Sequence record: OQ708376.1
Length of the DNA stretch: 64,000 nt
Strand: one strand, 5' to 3'
Source of the DNA: Escherichia phage vB_EcoM_CRJP21
In this document: positions 30,875 through 52,750 of the stretch, piece after piece
How positions within the stretch are numbered: the first letter of the stretch is position 1
Layout of the letters: each line of letters begins with the position of its first letter
Notes under the pieces: model-generated
The model's input: the letters and a program-made list of their open reading frames with translations, nothing else
Database searches by the model: none
Told to the model about the DNA's origin: nothing
Position numbers and translations under genes: made by a program

Positions 30875-33022
30875 ATGCTAAACATTACACGTATATCTAT
30901 GAGGAACTTCTTTTCATTTGGTAATGCACCACAATCAATTGATTTGAATGGTTCCGACATTTCATTAGTACTGGGTCAAAATAATGATGCAGTTATTGAA
31001 GGTGGTGACAGTACCGGACGTCGAAATGGTGTAGGGAAAAGTGCTATTATTCAAGGATTAGTTTTTGGATTATTTGGTAAAAGTATTGGTAATGATATTA
31101 AAATTCCGAACCTAGTCAATAAAACTAATGGCAAAAATTGTGAAGTAGTTGTAGAGTTTGAAAAAGATGGTGTACAATATCTGGTTGAACGTGGGAGAAG
31201 TCCCACGTATTTCAATTTTGTTACTTTAGGTAAAGATAATAAAATTGAAGATGAATCAAGGGGAGAAAAGAAAGACACACAAGAAGATTTGAATGAAATT
31301 CTTGGTATATCTCAATTATTATTTGAACATATTGTAGTACTGAATGCTAACGTTGAACCTTTCTTAGCTTTATCCACACAAAAACAACGTGATATGATAG
31401 AAGAACTTCTTGGAATAACACAGTTGACGGAAAAAGCTGAAATGCTAAAGGAGATGTATAAGGATACTAAACGTTTAGCCGAACAAGAAAAGTTCAAAAA
31501 TGAAACTGTAGCTGCAAGTAATGAACGTATTCAAAAAAGTATTGAGACACTACAAGAACAGGCAAACCAGTTTGAAATTGATAAAAATAATAGAGTATCT
31601 AAGTTAAATGAAGAGTTGAATATATATAAAACTTTAGACTTTAATGACCTCTATGAAGCTGCTGATATAAAAGAGAAAGCTCTTATTCATAACGCAAAGC
31701 GTGGGGAAATCGAACGCCGTGTACAAGAGTTGGCTTTAAAATTTGATGCATATGACCGTGAACTTGAAAGATCTAAAAGAGCATTAAATCTAAGCATTGA
31801 TAAGCTAAAAACTATTGATATTAGTGCAGAATTGGAAAATCATAATGAGTTGGAGATATGGAAACAGTTAGAGGGTATTCTAAAAGAGAATAATAACCAA
31901 AAACGTTTCAAAGAACAAAAACTAAACTCACTAAAAATAGCTTTAAAAGGATATGAATGTTCAATTAATGCTGAAATTGACAAATTATCAACAGTTGAAA
32001 ACAGCAAATGTCCACTTTGTATGTCTGAATTAGAACATAACGAACATACTTCTTCAATTAAAGACAAAATCCAAAGTACTATTAATGATCTTCAAGCTAA
32101 AATTGATAGTTCTTCTTCTGAAATTGAAACATTACTTCAAGAAATTGATAGTATTGAGATTTTTGATATGCCACCTAAGCCCGTGACATATTATAATACA
32201 CTTTCAGAAGCACAAATGCATGAACATAAGCTTCAAGAATTGGTCAGAAAGAGTGAAGAAGAACAAATAAACATCTATGCAAATGAACTTATGTCATCAT
32301 ATGATGAACTTAACTCATATGAACTAATGGAAGTTCCAGATACATTAAACAAATATGAAGTTAAAGAGTTAGAAATGACTGTAAATTCATTATCACAGCA
32401 ATTAGATCGTGAATTGAAGACTACTAACACATTTATTAGCCAAATTAATACCCTGAAGACTGATTCTTTAGTACCAATTGATTATAGCGACTATAATAAT
32501 CTTGATAAAATGTCAAATCACCAAGATTTCTTGGTTAAATTACTTTTAAACAAGGATTCTTATGTCCGTAAACGTATTATTGAGCAAAATATATCATATT
32601 TGAATACACGACTTCAGTACTATATCGATATGTGCGGTTCTGAGCATAATGTTGTGTTTTTGAATGATTTGAGTGTTGAAATTGAGAAGAGTGGACAGTA
32701 CTTTGACTATAAACAGCTTAGTAGAGGTGAGCGTACAAGGGTAAACATCGCATTATCTTGTGCTTTCCGTGATACATATGAGTCATTATACCAAAGTATT
32801 AATATTCTTATCATTGATGAGATGATTGACCAAGGTCTTGACTCAAGTGGTGTTCTACGTGTGTGGTCTATCTTCCAAGATATGGCTGCTGTACGTGGTA
32901 AGAACGTTTATGCTATTTCCCACAGAGAAGAGTTACTATCTAAGACTGAAAAAATCCTCAAAGTTGTTAAAGAGGACGGTTTCAGTACTGTTGAATATGC
33001 AACCCTTGACGATGTTTTCTAA
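30875..33022 (+). CDS. Rad50/SbcC-like recombination ATPase, gp46-like
   Basis: Walker A GRRNGVGKSA, long coiled-coil middle with CPLC zinc hook, ABC signature LSRGERTRV, Walker B ILIIDE. Confidence 0.85.
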   Translation: MLNITRISMRNFFSFGNAPQSIDLNGSDISLVLGQNNDAVIEGGDSTGRRNGVGKSAIIQGLVFGLFGKSIGNDIKIPNLVNKTNGKNCEVVVEFEKDGVQYLVERGRSPTYFNFVTLGKDNKIEDESRGEKKDTQEDLNEILGISQLLFEHIVVLNANVEPFLALSTQKQRDMIEELLGITQLTEKAEMLKEMYKDTKRLAEQEKFKNETVAASNERIQKSIETLQEQANQFEIDKNNRVSKLNEELNIYKTLDFNDLYEAADIKEKALIHNAKRGEIERRVQELALKFDAYDRELERSKRALNLSIDKLKTIDISAELENHNELEIWKQLEGILKENNNQKRFKEQKLNSLKIALKGYECSINAEIDKLSTVENSKCPLCMSELEHNEHTSSIKDKIQSTINDLQAKIDSSSSEIETLLQEIDSIEIFDMPPKPVTYYNTLSEAQMHEHKLQELVRKSEEEQINIYANELMSSYDELNSYELMEVPDTLNKYEVKELEMTVNSLSQQLDRELKTTNTFISQINTLKTDSLVPIDYSDYNNLDKMSNHQDFLVKLLLNKDSYVRKRIIEQNISYLNTRLQYYIDMCGSEHNVVFLNDLSVEIEKSGQYFDYKQLSRGERTRVNIALSCAFRDTYESLYQSINILIIDEMIDQGLDSSGVLRVWSIFQDMAAVRGKNVYAISHREELLSKTEKILKVVKEDGFSTVEYATLDDVF

Positions 33023-33027
33023 TTAAA

Positions 33028-33058
33028 GATAAAGGGAGCCTTAGCTCCCTTTTTTTAT
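33028..33058. terminator. Bidirectional rho-independent terminator
   Basis: Stem GGGAGC (33034-33039) / GCTCCC (33044-33049), loop CTTA, then T-run; overlaps the stop codon of the minus-strand gene. Confidence 0.7.
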
Positions 33059-33532
33059 ATCAACCATATTTAATTTACCGTCCTTAATCAGCTTTCTAGC
33101 TTGCTTTACACGAGCAGTAGTGTTACTACCAGGGACAACTCCTAACCCTTCCAGAATCGCGTTTTGCTGTGTTGCTGGAAGCCTTTTAAACTTATTAACA
33201 TCCACAGTTAGTGCAGTGTGATGTATAACTTGTTCATCGTCAGGAATGCTGTTATTACGCTCTAAGTAATCAGCAAGATTTCTGAGTACCTCATATAATG
33301 GTTTATCAGTTAAGTGCTTCATATATCGATTGAAGCTGTTTTGTACCTTTCCTTCCCAAGCATTGACTTCATTTTGAAGAACTTGTCTACAATGTTGGTT
33401 ACCATAGTGGTAGTGATCCAGTACTGGTTTAGTTATTGGTTCTTTAATTATAGGATCTATTCCATTTTGTTTCTTTAGTAATTTGTTTCGATAGTTTGCA
33501 GCATCCTTACTATCTTTTAATCTTTTTTTCAT
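33041..33532 (-). CDS. Endonuclease VII-like (gp49-like) junction-resolving nuclease, lacking the zinc cysteines
   Basis: By-eye alignment with T4 endo VII: QNG, LDHYHY (LDHDHE in T4), NAWEG (NAAEG), FNR, L..YLE; the four Zn-ligand Cys positions are not Cys here; TATAAATA late-promoter motif upstream on the minus strand. Confidence 0.45.
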   Translation of the reverse strand: MKKRLKDSKDAANYRNKLLKKQNGIDPIIKEPITKPVLDHYHYGNQHCRQVLQNEVNAWEGKVQNSFNRYMKHLTDKPLYEVLRNLADYLERNNSIPDDEQVIHHTALTVDVNKFKRLPATQQNAILEGLGVVPGSNTTARVKQARKLIKDGKLNMVDIKKGS

Positions 33533-33562
33533 AATTCCTCACCAAACTATTTGTTATCAAAA

Positions 33563-33570
33563 TATTTATA
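33563..33570 (-). promoter_or_regulatory. T4-type late promoter motif TATAAATA (minus strand)
   Basis: Plus-strand TATTTATA at 33563-33570, about 30 nt upstream of the endo VII-like start codon. Confidence 0.4.
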
Positions 33571-33623
33571 GATTAGTTATTTGCAATATTTTAAGTACTT
33601 AATGAATATTTTTATAAAAATAG

Positions 33624-33652
33624 TGAGACAACTTTAAAGTTTGTGCTATAAT
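33624..33652 (+). promoter_or_regulatory. Promoter: TGAGAC, 17-bp spacer, TGcTATAAT
   Basis: TGAGAC at 33624-33629, TATAAT at 33647-33652 with TG at 33644-33645; no protein-coding ORF downstream. Confidence 0.5.
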
Positions 33653-33659
33653 GTTTGTT

Positions 33660-34107
33660 GTAGTAATGACAATCCTGTTGAATGCAGAAATGCATATAAA
33701 TTAGAACCTGATCCTATCGAAAATGTAGATGGCAGATGAGCAGTTCAACAGTGCGATGAGCAAAAGAAACCCGTTAGATGTGGGCATAGTTTGAACCCCT
33801 CACGGCAATGCGGCTCAATAAAGAACTCCGATAAGCATACAGAGAGTTCCTCGATAGACATATAAGGATCGCACCTTACCAGATTTGCTAAGGGAGTTTA
33901 TTAAGTGATTTTAATAAACAGCCTGAAGTTTGATTGTATAGACTTTCAGGTGAGTGTCAGGATGATTAAGACTGACGACCGTTGCACATGACTGCGATAG
34001 AGAGAAACAGAGCAACCCGCTTTCGTTCTTAATATATTTTTAAGAAATTCGCAATACAATAAATGCTGAAACCATCAGCGTCAAGAAATAGAGACTTCAT
34101 TGTCTCT
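33660..34107 (+). ncRNA. Candidate structured non-coding RNA (about 450 nt, unknown class)
   Basis: Bounded by the promoter at 33624-33652 and an intrinsic terminator at 34090-34112; no ORF above about 20 codons on either strand; several internal hairpins; visibly less AT-rich than flanks. Confidence 0.35.
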
Positions 34108-34114
34108 TTTTTAT
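34088..34114 (+). terminator. Rho-independent terminator
   Basis: Stem AGAGAC (34090-34095) / GTCTCT (34102-34107), loop TTCATT, T-run 34108-34112. Confidence 0.7.
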
Positions 34115-34329
34115 TGTCTTCATTCCCCTGCGGGGGGATGAAAATGTCCTCAACAAATCCCGTCAAGTATTAAATCTTTTAAAGTTCTTTATAATTAATT
34201 TAATTAAATGAATATGAGTTACGTAGTAACGAATATTCTTCAGCTAACGAATGAAATGAGTTAGATGAATCCAATAATATTAAAATTAATCCTTTCATAA
34301 TTCAATTCAAATAATTCTGTAGTTTAAAA

Positions 34330-34360
34330 CCAAAAAAAAAACCAGCAACAATGTGCTGGC
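34330..34360 (-). terminator. Rho-independent terminator (minus strand)
   Basis: Stem CCAGCA / TGCTGG (34342-34359) preceded on the plus strand by a 10-A run (T-run on minus), just downstream of the minus-strand operon. Confidence 0.65.
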
Positions 34361-34370
34361 TATATGAAAA

Positions 34371-34580
34371 TTAGTGCTTCTCGTTTTGTTTTTTAATTTT
34401 TTTATTAAAAGACTTAACTAATAAGTCTCTATCTATTAATGGCATATTAAGGAGTGTTCCATAGTCAATGTTATCCATATATACAGAACATTCCATTAGT
34501 GCATTTTTGATTTCTGACTTATTCAGTTCTATCTCCTTCAGTACTTCTTGTATTTCTTCAGGAGATGACTGGAGAAGCAT
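34371..34580 (-). CDS. Hypothetical protein (69 aa)
   Basis: Small ORF overlapping the stop of the upstream gene at 34580; charged, helix-like composition. Confidence 0.4.
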   Translation of the reverse strand: MLLQSSPEEIQEVLKEIELNKSEIKNALMECSVYMDNIDYGTLLNMPLIDRDLLVKSFNKKIKKQNEKH

Positions 34581-35416
34581 TACTCGAAAAAATGACTAGG
34601 ATCATATTTTAGTCCATCAATTTCCCATTGATGATTACATCCATCACATTCTACTTCCATACTATGAGATACACCAATTTCAAGTACTTCATCCATTTTT
34701 TCACGAATTAGTTTAAGTACTCCCTTCGATTGTTGTCCAAGCCATTCATTAATAAATTCTTTTTCAACTACTTCATCACCATCTGGTGTTATAATTTTTG
34801 CAATAACTCCACCAATCATATCGAAGTTAAGTTGAGCCATGTTTTCAAATACTTCAGAAAATATTTTTACTTTTTCATCTTTATCAATATCAGCAGTTTC
34901 AAGAAACTTAGTCTTCTGCTGCTCACTGAACATGCGTTCAGCAAACGATGAATATTCTTTCCATGTCAGTGGTCTAAATTCTAAACGTAGTCCATTATCT
35001 AAATCAATTGATGGGATTTCTTCAAATGCTTGTGCAGTTTCAAGAAGATATGATAGATTACGTTCAAATCGACCTTCTTTTTCACATTCAGGACATACAA
35101 CGTTAATATCATATGTTTCTTCTTTAGAAGCAACTTTAATAGCAATAAGAAGCATTTCAACGTCATTTACATACAACTCATCAGCGTCAATTACATTAGG
35201 AACACAGTTTTCAATAACACGGGATACTGCATCTCCGTTTAGTAACATATCGGGGGTATTAAGTGTCATTTCATCACGTGCACTACGTGCACAAACTCCA
35301 CATTTGACACCTTTTGGACCTAGAACTCCTTCTTTATAAGGAATAACGCCGTTTGTAACTAACTTAGTACTGATCTCTTCAATTTTAGTGTACTTAGCAA
35401 GTGGATTCATAGCCAT
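34580..35416 (-). CDS. Zinc-ribbon protein with three CxxC pairs, unknown function
   Basis: CGVC, CPEC and CDGC motifs in a 278-aa ORF. Confidence 0.5.
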   Translation of the reverse strand: MAMNPLAKYTKIEEISTKLVTNGVIPYKEGVLGPKGVKCGVCARSARDEMTLNTPDMLLNGDAVSRVIENCVPNVIDADELYVNDVEMLLIAIKVASKEETYDINVVCPECEKEGRFERNLSYLLETAQAFEEIPSIDLDNGLRLEFRPLTWKEYSSFAERMFSEQQKTKFLETADIDKDEKVKIFSEVFENMAQLNFDMIGGVIAKIITPDGDEVVEKEFINEWLGQQSKGVLKLIREKMDEVLEIGVSHSMEVECDGCNHQWEIDGLKYDPSHFFE

Positions 35417-35546
35417 TTTATTAAATCTCCATGTAATAAATGTGTTTTAGTATTTATAAGACTAAAAAAGATTAAATTAAACTAATTTTTATATTCTCTA
35501 TAGTTTCATAAATATTTCTATAATACATCTATTAAAAGGGAATGTT

Positions 35547-43992: not shown

Positions 43993-45090
43993 ATGCCAAA
44001 CGTAAGTATCACCAAAGAAGAGTTTATCAGCAAAATGACTGCTAAGTATGGTGAATTTGATTTCAGTACTTTAGTATTCAAAGCAAGTAAGACAACAGTG
44101 AAATGTAACAAGTGTGGAAAAGAAAACACCAAACCTGCACTTCGTCACATTGCATGTACATGTGCATCATGTTATTCAAACATGTCACAACGTTCAAACA
44201 ACGACACATTCATCAGTACTGTAGAAACTAAATTTGGAAAAGATAAATTCAAATTTGATAAACTAAATTACACTAATGCTATATCAAAAGTAACAATTTT
44301 CTGCACAGATGAAGATCACAATGATTACTTTGAAATTACACCCAATAAATTTCTTTCTGGTAAAGGATGCCCCGTATGTAATAAAAATGAAGCATACAGT
44401 ACTGAAGAGTTCAAAGAAAAAGTAAAAGATAATTATGGTGATTTATTGGATTTAACTAACACGGTGTATGTAAATCAAAAAACTAAAGTAACTGTGTATT
44501 GTAACGCAGGTAATCATGAATGGACAGTTGATCCAAAAACTTTACTTGTTGGTAAGACTGGATGTGGTACATGCTCCGGTAAAGGCGGTCGAAGTACTGA
44601 ACGTTTCATTGAACTTGTGTCGCCTATCCATAACCATAAGTATGATTATAGCTTGGTGGATTACAAGACTAGTGATGAACATGTGGATATTATTTGTCCT
44701 GAACATGGTGTCTTTAAACAAATACCCAAATCTCATATGGCAGGAAGAGGATGTCCATCATGTGGTGAGTATGGTTATCAACCATCAAAGCCTGGATATT
44801 TCTATGTACAAAAACTATCTAATAACTCAAAAGTCGTTTACAAATACGGAATTACCGGAGACATGAAGAGACGAATTCATGAACAAAGTCGCAATTCTGA
44901 GTTCGAGCATGAAGTACTGGTAGAACGTTACTTTGAGGATGGTAATAAACCATTATTATTGGAAAAGTTTATCAAGCAATACATTGAAAGTGGTGTTGTA
45001 AGTACTGAAGAGTTACCGTCAGGATTTACTGAAACATTTGATGCTAAGTATCTTGAAAGTGTTTTAGAAATTGTAAATACTTTTAAGTAA
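43993..45090 (+). CDS. Multi-zinc-ribbon protein with C-terminal T5orf172 / GIY-YIG-like domain
   Basis: Repeated CxxC pairs (CNKCG, CTCASC, CPVCN, GCGTCSG, CPSCG), then GYFYV...YKYGIT...R...E...SGFTETF resembling the T5orf172 fold. Confidence 0.55.
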   Translation: MPNVSITKEEFISKMTAKYGEFDFSTLVFKASKTTVKCNKCGKENTKPALRHIACTCASCYSNMSQRSNNDTFISTVETKFGKDKFKFDKLNYTNAISKVTIFCTDEDHNDYFEITPNKFLSGKGCPVCNKNEAYSTEEFKEKVKDNYGDLLDLTNTVYVNQKTKVTVYCNAGNHEWTVDPKTLLVGKTGCGTCSGKGGRSTERFIELVSPIHNHKYDYSLVDYKTSDEHVDIICPEHGVFKQIPKSHMAGRGCPSCGEYGYQPSKPGYFYVQKLSNNSKVVYKYGITGDMKRRIHEQSRNSEFEHEVLVERYFEDGNKPLLLEKFIKQYIESGVVSTEELPSGFTETFDAKYLESVLEIVNTFK

Positions 45091-51628: not shown

Positions 51629-51917
51629 TATATATAAGCGTATTGGTGAAGTATTAGAAGGTAATGGTATCATTAATTCTGTACTAGCATATGATAATGA
51701 TGAAGAAGTAGTTCTAATTGGTGCGGGTTTTACTCGCACTGGTTCAGTGGAAGTTGACGGAGAGATTGCTGATGTTTACACTCTTGTGAAAAAGCGTAAA
51801 GTTGTTTTTGTCGATGATGTACATACATTAAAAGACTTGAAAAAATTACGCGATAAAATTGGCATGAGTTCTACAATTGATAAGCCTTATCTTCAACGTT
51901 GGAATACAAAATACTGA
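51621..51917 (+). CDS. Hypothetical protein (98 aa)
   Basis: ORF between polymerase and clamp-like genes; no motif. Confidence 0.45.
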   Translation: MSNIYKRIGEVLEGNGIINSVLAYDNDEEVVLIGAGFTRTGSVEVDGEIADVYTLVKKRKVVFVDDVHTLKDLKKLRDKIGMSSTIDKPYLQRWNTKY

Positions 51918-51925
51918 TAAAAAAT

Positions 51926-51954
51926 TGAGACAAGCATCATTTTTGAGATATAAT
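51926..51954 (+). promoter_or_regulatory. Promoter: TGAGAC, 17-bp spacer, TATAAT
   Basis: TGAGAC at 51926-51931, TATAAT at 51949-51954; upstream of the clamp-like gene. Confidence 0.5.
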
Positions 51955-52018
51955 GGTGCTTGTAGTAATCTTACATAAAAACATTTTTTGATTAACAAAT
52001 AAAACGGAGAATTATATA

Positions 52019-52750
52019 ATGGATCTACGCAACGTACTACGTGACCTCGTAAACACAACCAGTGGTATTGACTTCTCTTGTATTGCAGTAAGCAGTGAAG
52101 ACCGTGGTGAAGGACAACGTGTATATCTAGAAGCGTACACAGATGACCGAACTCTTGTAATGCGAGCATATACTAAAGAAGATGTTCCTGAAGTTCAGGG
52201 TCGTTTTGGCTTAGGTAATCTAGGTCTTCTTCAGGGTCTAATGTCTCTAAAAACATACAGTACCGAAGGAACCACAATCACATCAAATGTTAAAGATGGT
52301 TCAGTTAAAAGTCTGGCATTTAAATCTGAAGATGCAAGCACTACATTTATGGTACAAGCTGAAAAACTTATTCCAGTTCAACCACGTTTTCATGAACAAC
52401 CATATGACGTACAGGTTATTCCTAGTGCAGCAAAAGTTCAGGAACTAAAGAGTTTTTCTGGTGTATTTAAATCTTTTAGTTCTCTTGTAACTCCGTATAC
52501 TGAAGGCGACACCCTATACTTTCACGTTGGTGAGAAAAACAAAAGTAACCACGTTGGTTCTCTAGCTTTTTCTAAAACTGAAGGTGAATTAGGTCTTGGT
52601 TTTGGTTATAATATTGATCGCGTACTTCAAGCATTATCTCGCGTATCTAATGCCGAATCAGTATCACTTGGTATTACTAAAACTGGTATGCTAAATGTAA
52701 CACTAGATACTGGAATTGCAGTATACAAATTTTACGTAACAGGCTGCTAA
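52019..52750 (+). CDS. Sliding clamp, gp45-like (putative)
   Basis: By-eye similarity to T4 gp45 (N-terminal L..N.TSGI; LGNLGLLQGL vs LNGFLGILSL; DASTTFMV vs DARSTIFW); similar size; downstream of the polymerase. Confidence 0.5.
   Translation: MDLRNVLRDLVNTTSGIDFSCIAVSSEDRGEGQRVYLEAYTDDRTLVMRAYTKEDVPEVQGRFGLGNLGLLQGLMSLKTYSTEGTTITSNVKDGSVKSLAFKSEDASTTFMVQAEKLIPVQPRFHEQPYDVQVIPSAAKVQELKSFSGVFKSFSSLVTPYTEGDTLYFHVGEKNKSNHVGSLAFSKTEGELGLGFGYNIDRVLQALSRVSNAESVSLGITKTGMLNVTLDTGIAVYKFYVTGC

Follow-up and report, generated by a model that had tools for sequence, protein, structure and literature searches.

Large, highly structured RNAs are rare in bacteria and phages, and GOLLD, ROOL and OLE are structurally remarkable examples. 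GOLLD and ROOL are associated with tRNA genes. In the early region of phage T7, RNase III processing hairpins such as R1.1 are found, and ColE1 RNA II is a structured primer transcript of about 500 nt which is made from a constitutive promoter and has a G-run near its 3' end. Phages and prophages carry GOLLD and ROOL, which belong to the large structured RNAs called 'ornate' (PMC12286853). In the distantly related jumbo phage PA5oct, ncRNA004 was defined by RNA-seq as a 'putative lncRNA' of about 620 nt (619 nt) (PMC7318152). While large structured RNAs of phages are a known kind, the RNA family of the element at positions 33623 to 34269 of the DNA analysed here appears to be undescribed.

The window analysed is a stretch of 64,000 nt from Escherichia phage vB_EcoM_CRJP21 (OQ708376.1), and positions refer to this window unless stated otherwise. 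In BLAST comparisons, window 33000–35500 was 99.8% identical to the Escherichia phages JP4, UB and PBECO4 and 99.5% identical to 121Q, and on these identities the window is assigned to a jumbo phage of the genus Asteriusvirus (PBECO4/121Q type). The studied interval, 34115–34370, lies in a gene-free gap of 838 bp (33533–34370). Curated records show no annotated genes in this gap, and some automatic annotations (JP4, fEgEco12) call short "hypothetical proteins" there. The features of the region are as follows.

33041–33532, minus strand: endonuclease VII gene, flanking the gap on one side
33623–33652, plus strand: sigma-70 type promoter with extended -10 (10 of 12 matches; TG at 33644–33645, TATAAT at 33647–33652)
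33663–34089, plus strand: structured RNA core (nhmmer, covariance model R1, RNAalifold)
34090–34112, plus strand: internal intrinsic terminator (6-bp stem AGAGAC/GUCUCU, loop UUCAUU, U6)
34119–34142, plus strand: GC-clamp hairpin UUCAUUCCCC-UGCG-GGGGGAUGAA (10 pairs, dG -16.9 kcal/mol, z -4.1)
34148–34167, plus strand: conserved unpaired 3' motif CCUCAAC-AAAUCCCGUCAAG (the family profile match ends at 34173–34180)
34168–34207, no strand: AT-rich, poorly conserved linker (9% GC over 34174–34207)
34209–34238, plus strand: trailer hairpin A (outer stem GAAUAU/AUAUUC, GA/GA internal loop, inner stem GUUAC-GUA-GUAAC)
34239–34269, plus strand: trailer hairpin B (UUCAgCUAAC-GAAUGAAAUGA-GUUAGaUGAA, with a purine-purine mismatch five pairs below the loop)
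34270–34329, no strand: AT-rich, non-conserved filler (17% GC over 34271–34329)
34330–34361, minus strand: intrinsic terminator of the operon of the 69-aa ORF and the baseplate hub gene (consensus scan; dG -10.9 kcal/mol, z -3.1)
34371–34580, minus strand: 69-aa ORF, flanking the gap on the other side
34580–35416, minus strand: baseplate hub gene, beyond the 69-aa ORF

Sequence comparison places 34113–34173 and 34209–34269 in one conserved element that begins at the sigma-70 promoter, and the interval is probably, for its main part, the conserved 3' end and the two-hairpin trailer of a large folded phage RNA present in multiple copies. The original prediction had described the interval as an AT-rich spacer between two terminators. 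Both terminators were confirmed by consensus matches, one on the plus strand (34090–34112) and one on the minus strand, the latter with a stem at 34361–34340 and a T-run to about 34332; it is annotated in the record of phage G17 by an ARNold-based annotation, and its position is kept in all syntenic phages. Altogether, a scan listed 6 terminator-like sites in the region versus 1.2 expected. The AT-richness holds only for 34174–34207 and 34271–34329, but not for 34113–34173 (44% GC) or 34208–34270 (30% GC), the window average being 34.5%. The filler is 80–93% identical in the closest relatives and 31–64% in A4, EJP2, Munch, GAP32 and CBB, and for 34167–34207 identities of 37–71% were found in the more distant syntenic phages. 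It had also been stated that the interval has no obvious role for the flanking genes, and this agrees with its belonging to the RNA element and not to the endonuclease VII or baseplate genes. Likewise, the expectation that the interval is not inert and most likely holds an RNA-level feature is borne out by the conserved RNA element.

The order of promoter, core, terminator, GC hairpin with CAAAUCCCGUCA, AT-rich linker and two adjacent hairpins recurs in the paralogs. Of 24 unique copies, 23 have a TGnTATAAT-type box (pattern T[GA]nTA[TC]AAT) 295–410 nt 5' of the core motif, and in 23 of the 24 the GC hairpin with CAAAnCnCGTCA ends 129–199 nt 3' of this motif. The 5' start of the RNA is predicted to lie near 33659. 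The same promoter type is present at 51917–51969 (ATAAAAAATTGAGACAA ... TGAGATATAAT, with a transcript beginning GCTTGTAGTAAT), where it resembles 33614–33667 and precedes a protein-coding gene (ATG at 52029). This site and the promoter of the element look like members of a shared early-promoter class with a shared initial transcribed sequence.

A sensitive BLAST search of the gap against phage genomes returned 70 records. In the distant phages Munch, GAP32, CBB, Serratia BF, Yersinia fHe-Yen9-04 and Xanthomonas XbC2, the match comprised gap positions 157–650, corresponding to window 33689–34183, so that conservation extends past the plus-strand terminator and through the GC hairpin. Each related jumbo-phage genome contained 4–5 matching places by BLAST. 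PBECO4 has four copies, all on the same strand (about 38.0–38.6, 93.7–94.2, 195.0–195.5 and 304.7–305.6 kb), the fourth of which corresponds to the copy in the window; the first three are referred to as c1, c2 and c3 below. Exact-motif scans identified 19 loci in viral contigs and another 19 in metagenomes, mostly on contigs of jumbo-phage size, and a profile built from the copies gave 50 matches in the loci collected (nhmmer). In the window, the nhmmer family match runs from 33663/33668 to 34173/34180, with E 9e-139 for 33668–34173. The related jumbo phages carrying the whole layout span at least nine host genera. No copies were found in the plasmids searched, and a match to Lewinella from the genome scan was dismissed as chance as it had no profile match. 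In the Klebsiella phages RaK2 (NC_019526.1, about 191.65 kb) and K64-1 (AB897757.1, about 191.76 kb), the BLAST match covers only 50 nt of the core motif (GAGAGAAAC ... ACCCGCUUUCG), and their version of the RNA may be far more divergent.

Among 5,426 genomes, the element matched two complete E. coli chromosomes. E. coli LR-29-1 (NZ_AP027515.1; L057 7960–8551) carries a full copy (427 bits) with promoter, core, internal terminator, GC hairpin, CAAAUCUCGUCA and the two trailer hairpins; the other chromosome is NZ_CM130020.1. The LR-29-1 island adjoins ffs, contains a tyrosine integrase split by IS3 and encodes the candidate defence system PDC-M45 (DuOB, DUF488 and mSLOG-DUF4326 domains). This E. 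coli copy is 80.6% identical to the copy of Serratia phage BF. A second full copy (346 bits), with the same order of terminator, hairpin, motif and trailer, was found in Citrobacter amalonaticus P55 (L058 3507–4129). By eye, the Citrobacter copy lies directly after a large ORF with a serine recombinase-like N-terminus and precedes ORFs resembling a CI-type repressor and a Ner-type regulator. Since full copies are present in phages as well as in islands, jumbo phages and integrative elements appear to exchange the whole unit, including the studied interval, as a single cassette.

The covarying RNA core is about 430 nt long and is marked by the motifs GACCGU ... UAGAGAGAAAC ... ACCCGCUUUCG. The window copy matches both the family profile and the covariance model; covariance model R1 found 33923–34063 with 129.5 bits (E 8e-29) as its sole match in the window. 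RNAalifold applied to 25 non-redundant copies predicted 73 pairs, 46 of them with compensatory changes (for instance, AUUGUAU/AUACAAU is changed to GGUCGAAU/AUUCGAC), where the aligned copies are orthologs and paralogs of one family and not independent, and shuffle controls therefore overstate the significance. G-U pairs made up 10% of the paired cells, and pairing was 96.3% on the plus strand versus 87.3% on the minus strand; the G-U pairs in the core thus indicate a fold specific for the plus strand. An insertion of about 40 nt that forms a hairpin module (AAUUUUG ... UACAAUAUAG ... GAUCCGUCCAAAAUU) occupies two different sites of the RNA, depending on the copy (alignment A3, columns 350–400 and 523–560). 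UE-S1 carries it (L002, about 2560–2600, equivalent to window 34026–34050) where the window copy has just a short hairpin, and the module may be a modular peripheral RNA motif.

Rfam 15 gave no family match in the whole window at gathering scores, only weak matches at chance level for 33450–34450 at E up to 10, and no match within the element for six diverse copies. GOLLD, ROOL, HEARO, OLE, RNase P, tmRNA, group I/II introns and riboswitches were all covered by this search, and none was found. ARAGORN detected no tRNA or tmRNA in the window. No description of the RNA element was found in the papers searched on PBECO4, 121Q, GAP32, CBB and RaK2.

The core is followed by the plus-strand terminator, with a hairpin at 34090–34107 and a T-run to 34112 (dG -7.9 kcal/mol, z -3.6). 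Five of the six pairs of its stem covary in 22 copies. It was not called in the ARNold-based annotation of phage G17, and from this and the folding energy its strength is estimated to be modest. The terminator hairpin is missing from the PBECO4 paralogs c2 and c3, which keep the GC hairpin and both CGUCAA motifs; in c2 and c3 the GC hairpin is thus contiguous with the core. While the terminator stem varies freely in sequence, the GC hairpin is nearly fixed. Such variation suggests that the terminator stem is selected for shape only, as expected of a terminator.

A hairpin with CCCCTGCGGGGGG at 34125–34137 had been noted in the original prediction. This sequence is present, but the extent described was too small, as it forms the centre of a longer hairpin which spans 34119–34142. 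A 20-nt probe for this hairpin gave 1 match in the window within 3 mismatches versus 0 expected, and in 264 kb scanned the motif was confined to four copies of the element. In 22 copies, 93% of the cells were paired and both-side changes were seen in 1 of the 10 pairs, so that the evidence for pairing comes chiefly from conservation, from wobble changes and from a small number of divergent copies, with few compensatory changes. The U-G pair 34124/34137 is kept in 18 of the 22 copies and replaced by C-G in 3; on the other strand it would be an A-C mismatch. An assignment of this hairpin as an intrinsic terminator was rejected because a U-run is lacking (AAAAUGUCC follows on the plus strand and GACAAUAAAAAA precedes on the minus strand), and the terminator scan did not list it.

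The GC hairpin and CAAAUCYCGUCA (window 34119–34165) are found directly 3' of the core or terminator in 22 of 22 copies in alignment A4 and in both the E. coli and the Citrobacter copy. Within the motif, all 22 copies agree at the AAAnCnCGTCA positions. With identities of 93% in EJP2, 87% in Munch and 76% in GAP32, 34113–34166 is the best conserved segment of the gap, compared to 71% for the RNA core and 57–63% for the neighbouring 69-aa ORF. It had been considered that the interval might be the remnant of a decayed gene, and the position of the 3' domain as the best conserved gap segment speaks against this. In the most divergent metagenomic copies, L049 and L046 (the latter cut at the contig end), the hairpin is kept and the CGUCA motif is lost. 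No covarying pairing partner was found for CAAAUCCCGUCA, the candidates being only invariant or wobble-compatible. A late promoter of the T4 type (TATAAATA) was also considered for the linker that follows CGUCA and rejected, since by eye only a minority of copies come near to it.

Another suggestion was that the interval harbours a second small RNA or a micropeptide gene, and such an independent gene between the two terminators is very improbable. It is true that an 11-codon ORF (34138–34173) and an 18-codon ORF (34208–34264) exist, that short hypothetical proteins were annotated automatically in JP4 and fEgEco12, and that the trailer folds well. The ribosome-binding sites proposed for the ORFs were, however, not credible: the ATG of the 11-codon ORF at 34138 abuts GGGGGG with zero spacing, and no Shine-Dalgarno sequence lies upstream of the 18-codon ORF at 34208 (TTAATTTAATTAAATG). 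All five ORFs tested on both strands (11, 18 and 36 codons on the plus strand, 32 and 45 codons on the minus strand) are interrupted by a frameshift or a stop in A4, EJP2, Munch, GAP32 or CBB while the DNA stays conserved. In addition, fEgEco12 and ph0011 each break one of these ORFs. When the conservation of the micro-ORFs in relatives was checked, as had been proposed, the reading frames turned out not to be kept within the genus. The short "hypothetical proteins" called by annotation pipelines in the 838-bp gap are spurious. With regard to a separate small RNA, no plus-strand promoter was found in 34090–34208 at a scan threshold of 9 of 12, and the best candidate by eye (TAGAGA-17-TATTGT) had 8 of 12 matches, was not conserved and was rejected. 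The scan detected no plus-strand terminator after 34112, including the region after the trailer. Furthermore, there is no break in conservation between the upstream RNA, the terminator and the GC hairpin, and the stretch always accompanies the upstream core.

The trailer of the element is located 3' of the linker. Two short direct repeats had been reported here, and both AGTAACGAAT (34225–34234) and GCTAACGAAT (34243–34252) are present; they are, however, not repeats in their own right. The former is the 3' arm of hairpin A and the latter the 5' arm of hairpin B, and each is followed by GAAU. A trailer module, UGAAUUGAG ... CGAAAAUUCUU followed by the second hairpin, is recognisable in most copies, and window 34209–34269 shows the pattern UGAAUUGAG ... 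GAAAAUUCUU together with a hairpin B containing a purine-purine mismatch. Trailers were extracted from 20 of 24 copies with a pattern that skipped the other three PBECO4 paralogs, whose trailers have diverged, and when folded singly all 20 formed the same two adjacent hairpins. For the window trailer (34205–34272), a z of -4.3 was obtained.

Across the trailers, the outer stem of hairpin A is GAAUU/AAUUC, its internal loop is small (GA/GAA) and its inner stem varies, and in the lineage of the window an inserted A is paired with an A-to-U change on the opposite arm. Hairpin B comprises four pairs, one mismatch and five pairs. In 14 copies of hairpin B, 9 of 10 stem positions pair in 12–14 of the 14, and at 5 positions different Watson-Crick pairs occur. 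At the mismatch, 11 copies have A-G, 2 have A-U and the window copy has G-A. The window version of hairpin B has a larger loop and altered pairs. The TTGACA of hairpin B was also considered as a -35 box and rejected because, by eye, the spacing and the -10 were inconsistent and the stem covaries. In place of the trailer, the PBECO4 paralog c3 (about 195.0 kb; L012, about 45000–45050) has a near-consensus sigma-70 promoter (TTGACA, 17 nt, TAGAAT), which follows CGTCAATATTAAAAGTCC directly. The upstream neighbour of c3 is a gene annotated as RNA polymerase sigma factor (gp356).

In the paralogous loci, hairpin B ends 10–25 nt 5' of the ribosome-binding site of a plus-strand gene, and in roughly half of the copies a start codon follows 71–121 nt past the family match, directly after the trailer. 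This gene arrangement could mean that the element as a whole acts in cis, as a leader or attenuator cassette, and that the copy in the window is an orphan which lost its gene. Paralogs c2 and c3, lacking the terminator, run straight into a gene, and riboswitches and attenuators usually consist of a structured RNA with a terminator after it. However, the next feature after the element here and at the syntenic loci of Munch, GAP32, CBB and EJP2 is a convergent minus-strand terminator and no gene, and this gene-less copy between the endonuclease VII and baseplate genes has been kept and is well conserved in Asteriusvirus phages, Munch, GAP32 and CBB. The genes 3' of different paralogs are unrelated to one another, and a conserved protein partner downstream was rejected on these grounds; in the bacterial islands, the next ORF is about 210 and about 700 nt away. 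Moreover, the most conserved sequence of the element sits after the terminator, where it is unable to influence termination. A role as leader cassette is thus regarded as unlikely. One paralog class in Serratia BF-type and related phages (L031, L023) lies directly 5' of an ADP-ribosylglycohydrolase-like gene, as judged by eye from the N-terminal sequence, and in XbC2 a gene annotated as ADP-ribosylglycohydrolase is the second gene downstream of an RNA copy.

The region might also act at the level of DNA, as a replication origin primed by a long structured transcript, comparable to ColE1 RNA II or to the R-loop origins of phage T4. The G-run would then anchor the RNA-DNA hybrid, and the AT-rich stretch 3' of it would be unwound. 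The dispersal of the four PBECO4 copies (about 38, 94, 195 and 305 kb) would suit this explanation, as would a strong promoter about 480 nt 5' of the G-run with DNA of 9% GC thereafter, and a GC hairpin that is conserved in sequence and not only in structure. The island copy could be replicated by a helper phage, and ATCGATCG repeats lie about 400 nt downstream of the copy in the LR-29-1 island. Yet covariation is seen in the trailer hairpins beyond the G-run, a sign that selection acts on RNA rather than on the unwinding of DNA, and G-U pairs, one of them inside the GC hairpin, are tolerated only in a plus-strand RNA. Gene orientation does not switch at the PBECO4 copies c1–c3, and the GC skew near 34.1 kb simply tracks the direction of transcription, with no change beyond this effect. 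Taken together, we consider an origin of this type improbable.

The interval is likely best explained as the 3' part of one conserved RNA element, the longer form of which would arise from read-through of the terminator. Both this read-through and the true 3' end are predicted from sequence features. In such a scheme, the element would be transcribed early by the host RNA polymerase, and most transcripts would end at 34112, as RNAs of about 455 nt. The GC hairpin, the 3' motif and the trailer would be present in those transcripts that read through and, in the paralogs lacking a terminator, in every transcript; this longer form would be under selection. A U-run after a covarying stem has the look of a working terminator, and with efficient termination the RNA from this locus would seldom contain the GC hairpin. 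Because it is conserved in sequence, the GC hairpin is a putative recognition site, either for a protein or for another part of the RNA that docks with it, and it may additionally serve as a stable 3' cap and not as a terminator. In the paralogous loci, where the stable RNA adjoins an mRNA, the trailer probably insulates this junction or serves in its processing. As no gene follows the convergent copy in the window, the trailer would have no mRNA to serve here.

We tentatively propose that the element represents an undescribed class of large (0.5–0.6 kb) structured RNAs with 4–5 dispersed, early-transcribed copies, which moved between giant enterobacterial phages and integrative or defence islands of E. 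coli and Citrobacter. This would fit a role in conflicts between phage and host or phage and satellite, possibly as a decoy, counter-defence or hijacking RNA, in which the GC hairpin might be the recognition site. The element is present in multiple copies per genome and more conserved than the surrounding genes, and the phage infects laboratory E. coli, making it experimentally tractable. The copies in bacterial islands, one of them together with candidate defence genes, offer a concrete handle on the function of the RNA. For annotation, the 838-bp gap should be recorded as a single RNA gene with an internal terminator.

Several features of the element resemble known systems only in part. Like other intrinsic terminators, those at 34090–34112 and at 34361–34332 (minus strand) consist of a stem-loop and a U-run, whereas the GC-clamp hairpin at 34119–34142 is followed by AAAAUG and is conserved in sequence. 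Trailer hairpin A resembles the RNase III hairpins of T7 in being long and irregular, in its internal loop and in its location between a stable RNA and the ribosome-binding site of the next gene, but no gene follows hairpin A at the locus in the window, and the suggested likeness is one of shape and position. In common with ColE1 RNA II, the element is predicted to be a structured transcript of about 500 nt that starts at a constitutive promoter and has a G-run near the 3' end. It differs in that the structures 3' of this G-run covary, and no origin, RNase H site or antisense regulator was identified for the element.

The 3' end of PA5oct ncRNA004 weakly matches the 3' domain of the element (7.6 bits, E 0.0026 in a 19-kb search), but the covariance model of the core finds nothing in PA5oct, and the neighbouring genes are unrelated. 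A homology to the PA5oct lncRNAs was therefore dropped to a lead, with only a weak 3' match, no core match and no synteny. At the 3' end of ncRNA004 (L056 1117–1735), a small hairpin precedes a U-rich stretch, which is followed by a GC hairpin (UUUCCUUCCC-AAAC-GGGGAGGAAA). This order is also that of window 34090–34142, and the annotated 3' end of ncRNA004 lies just past its GC hairpin.

As with GOLLD and ROOL, the element is a large (0.5–0.6 kb) structured non-coding RNA with many covarying helices that is found in phages and integrated mobile elements. It has no match in sequence or structure to either of the two Rfam models, and an association with tRNA genes was not seen, ARAGORN having found no tRNA in the window. 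In contrast to both, it is present in 4–5 copies per genome, has its own sigma-70 promoter and contains an internal terminator which is followed by a conserved 3' domain and a trailer.
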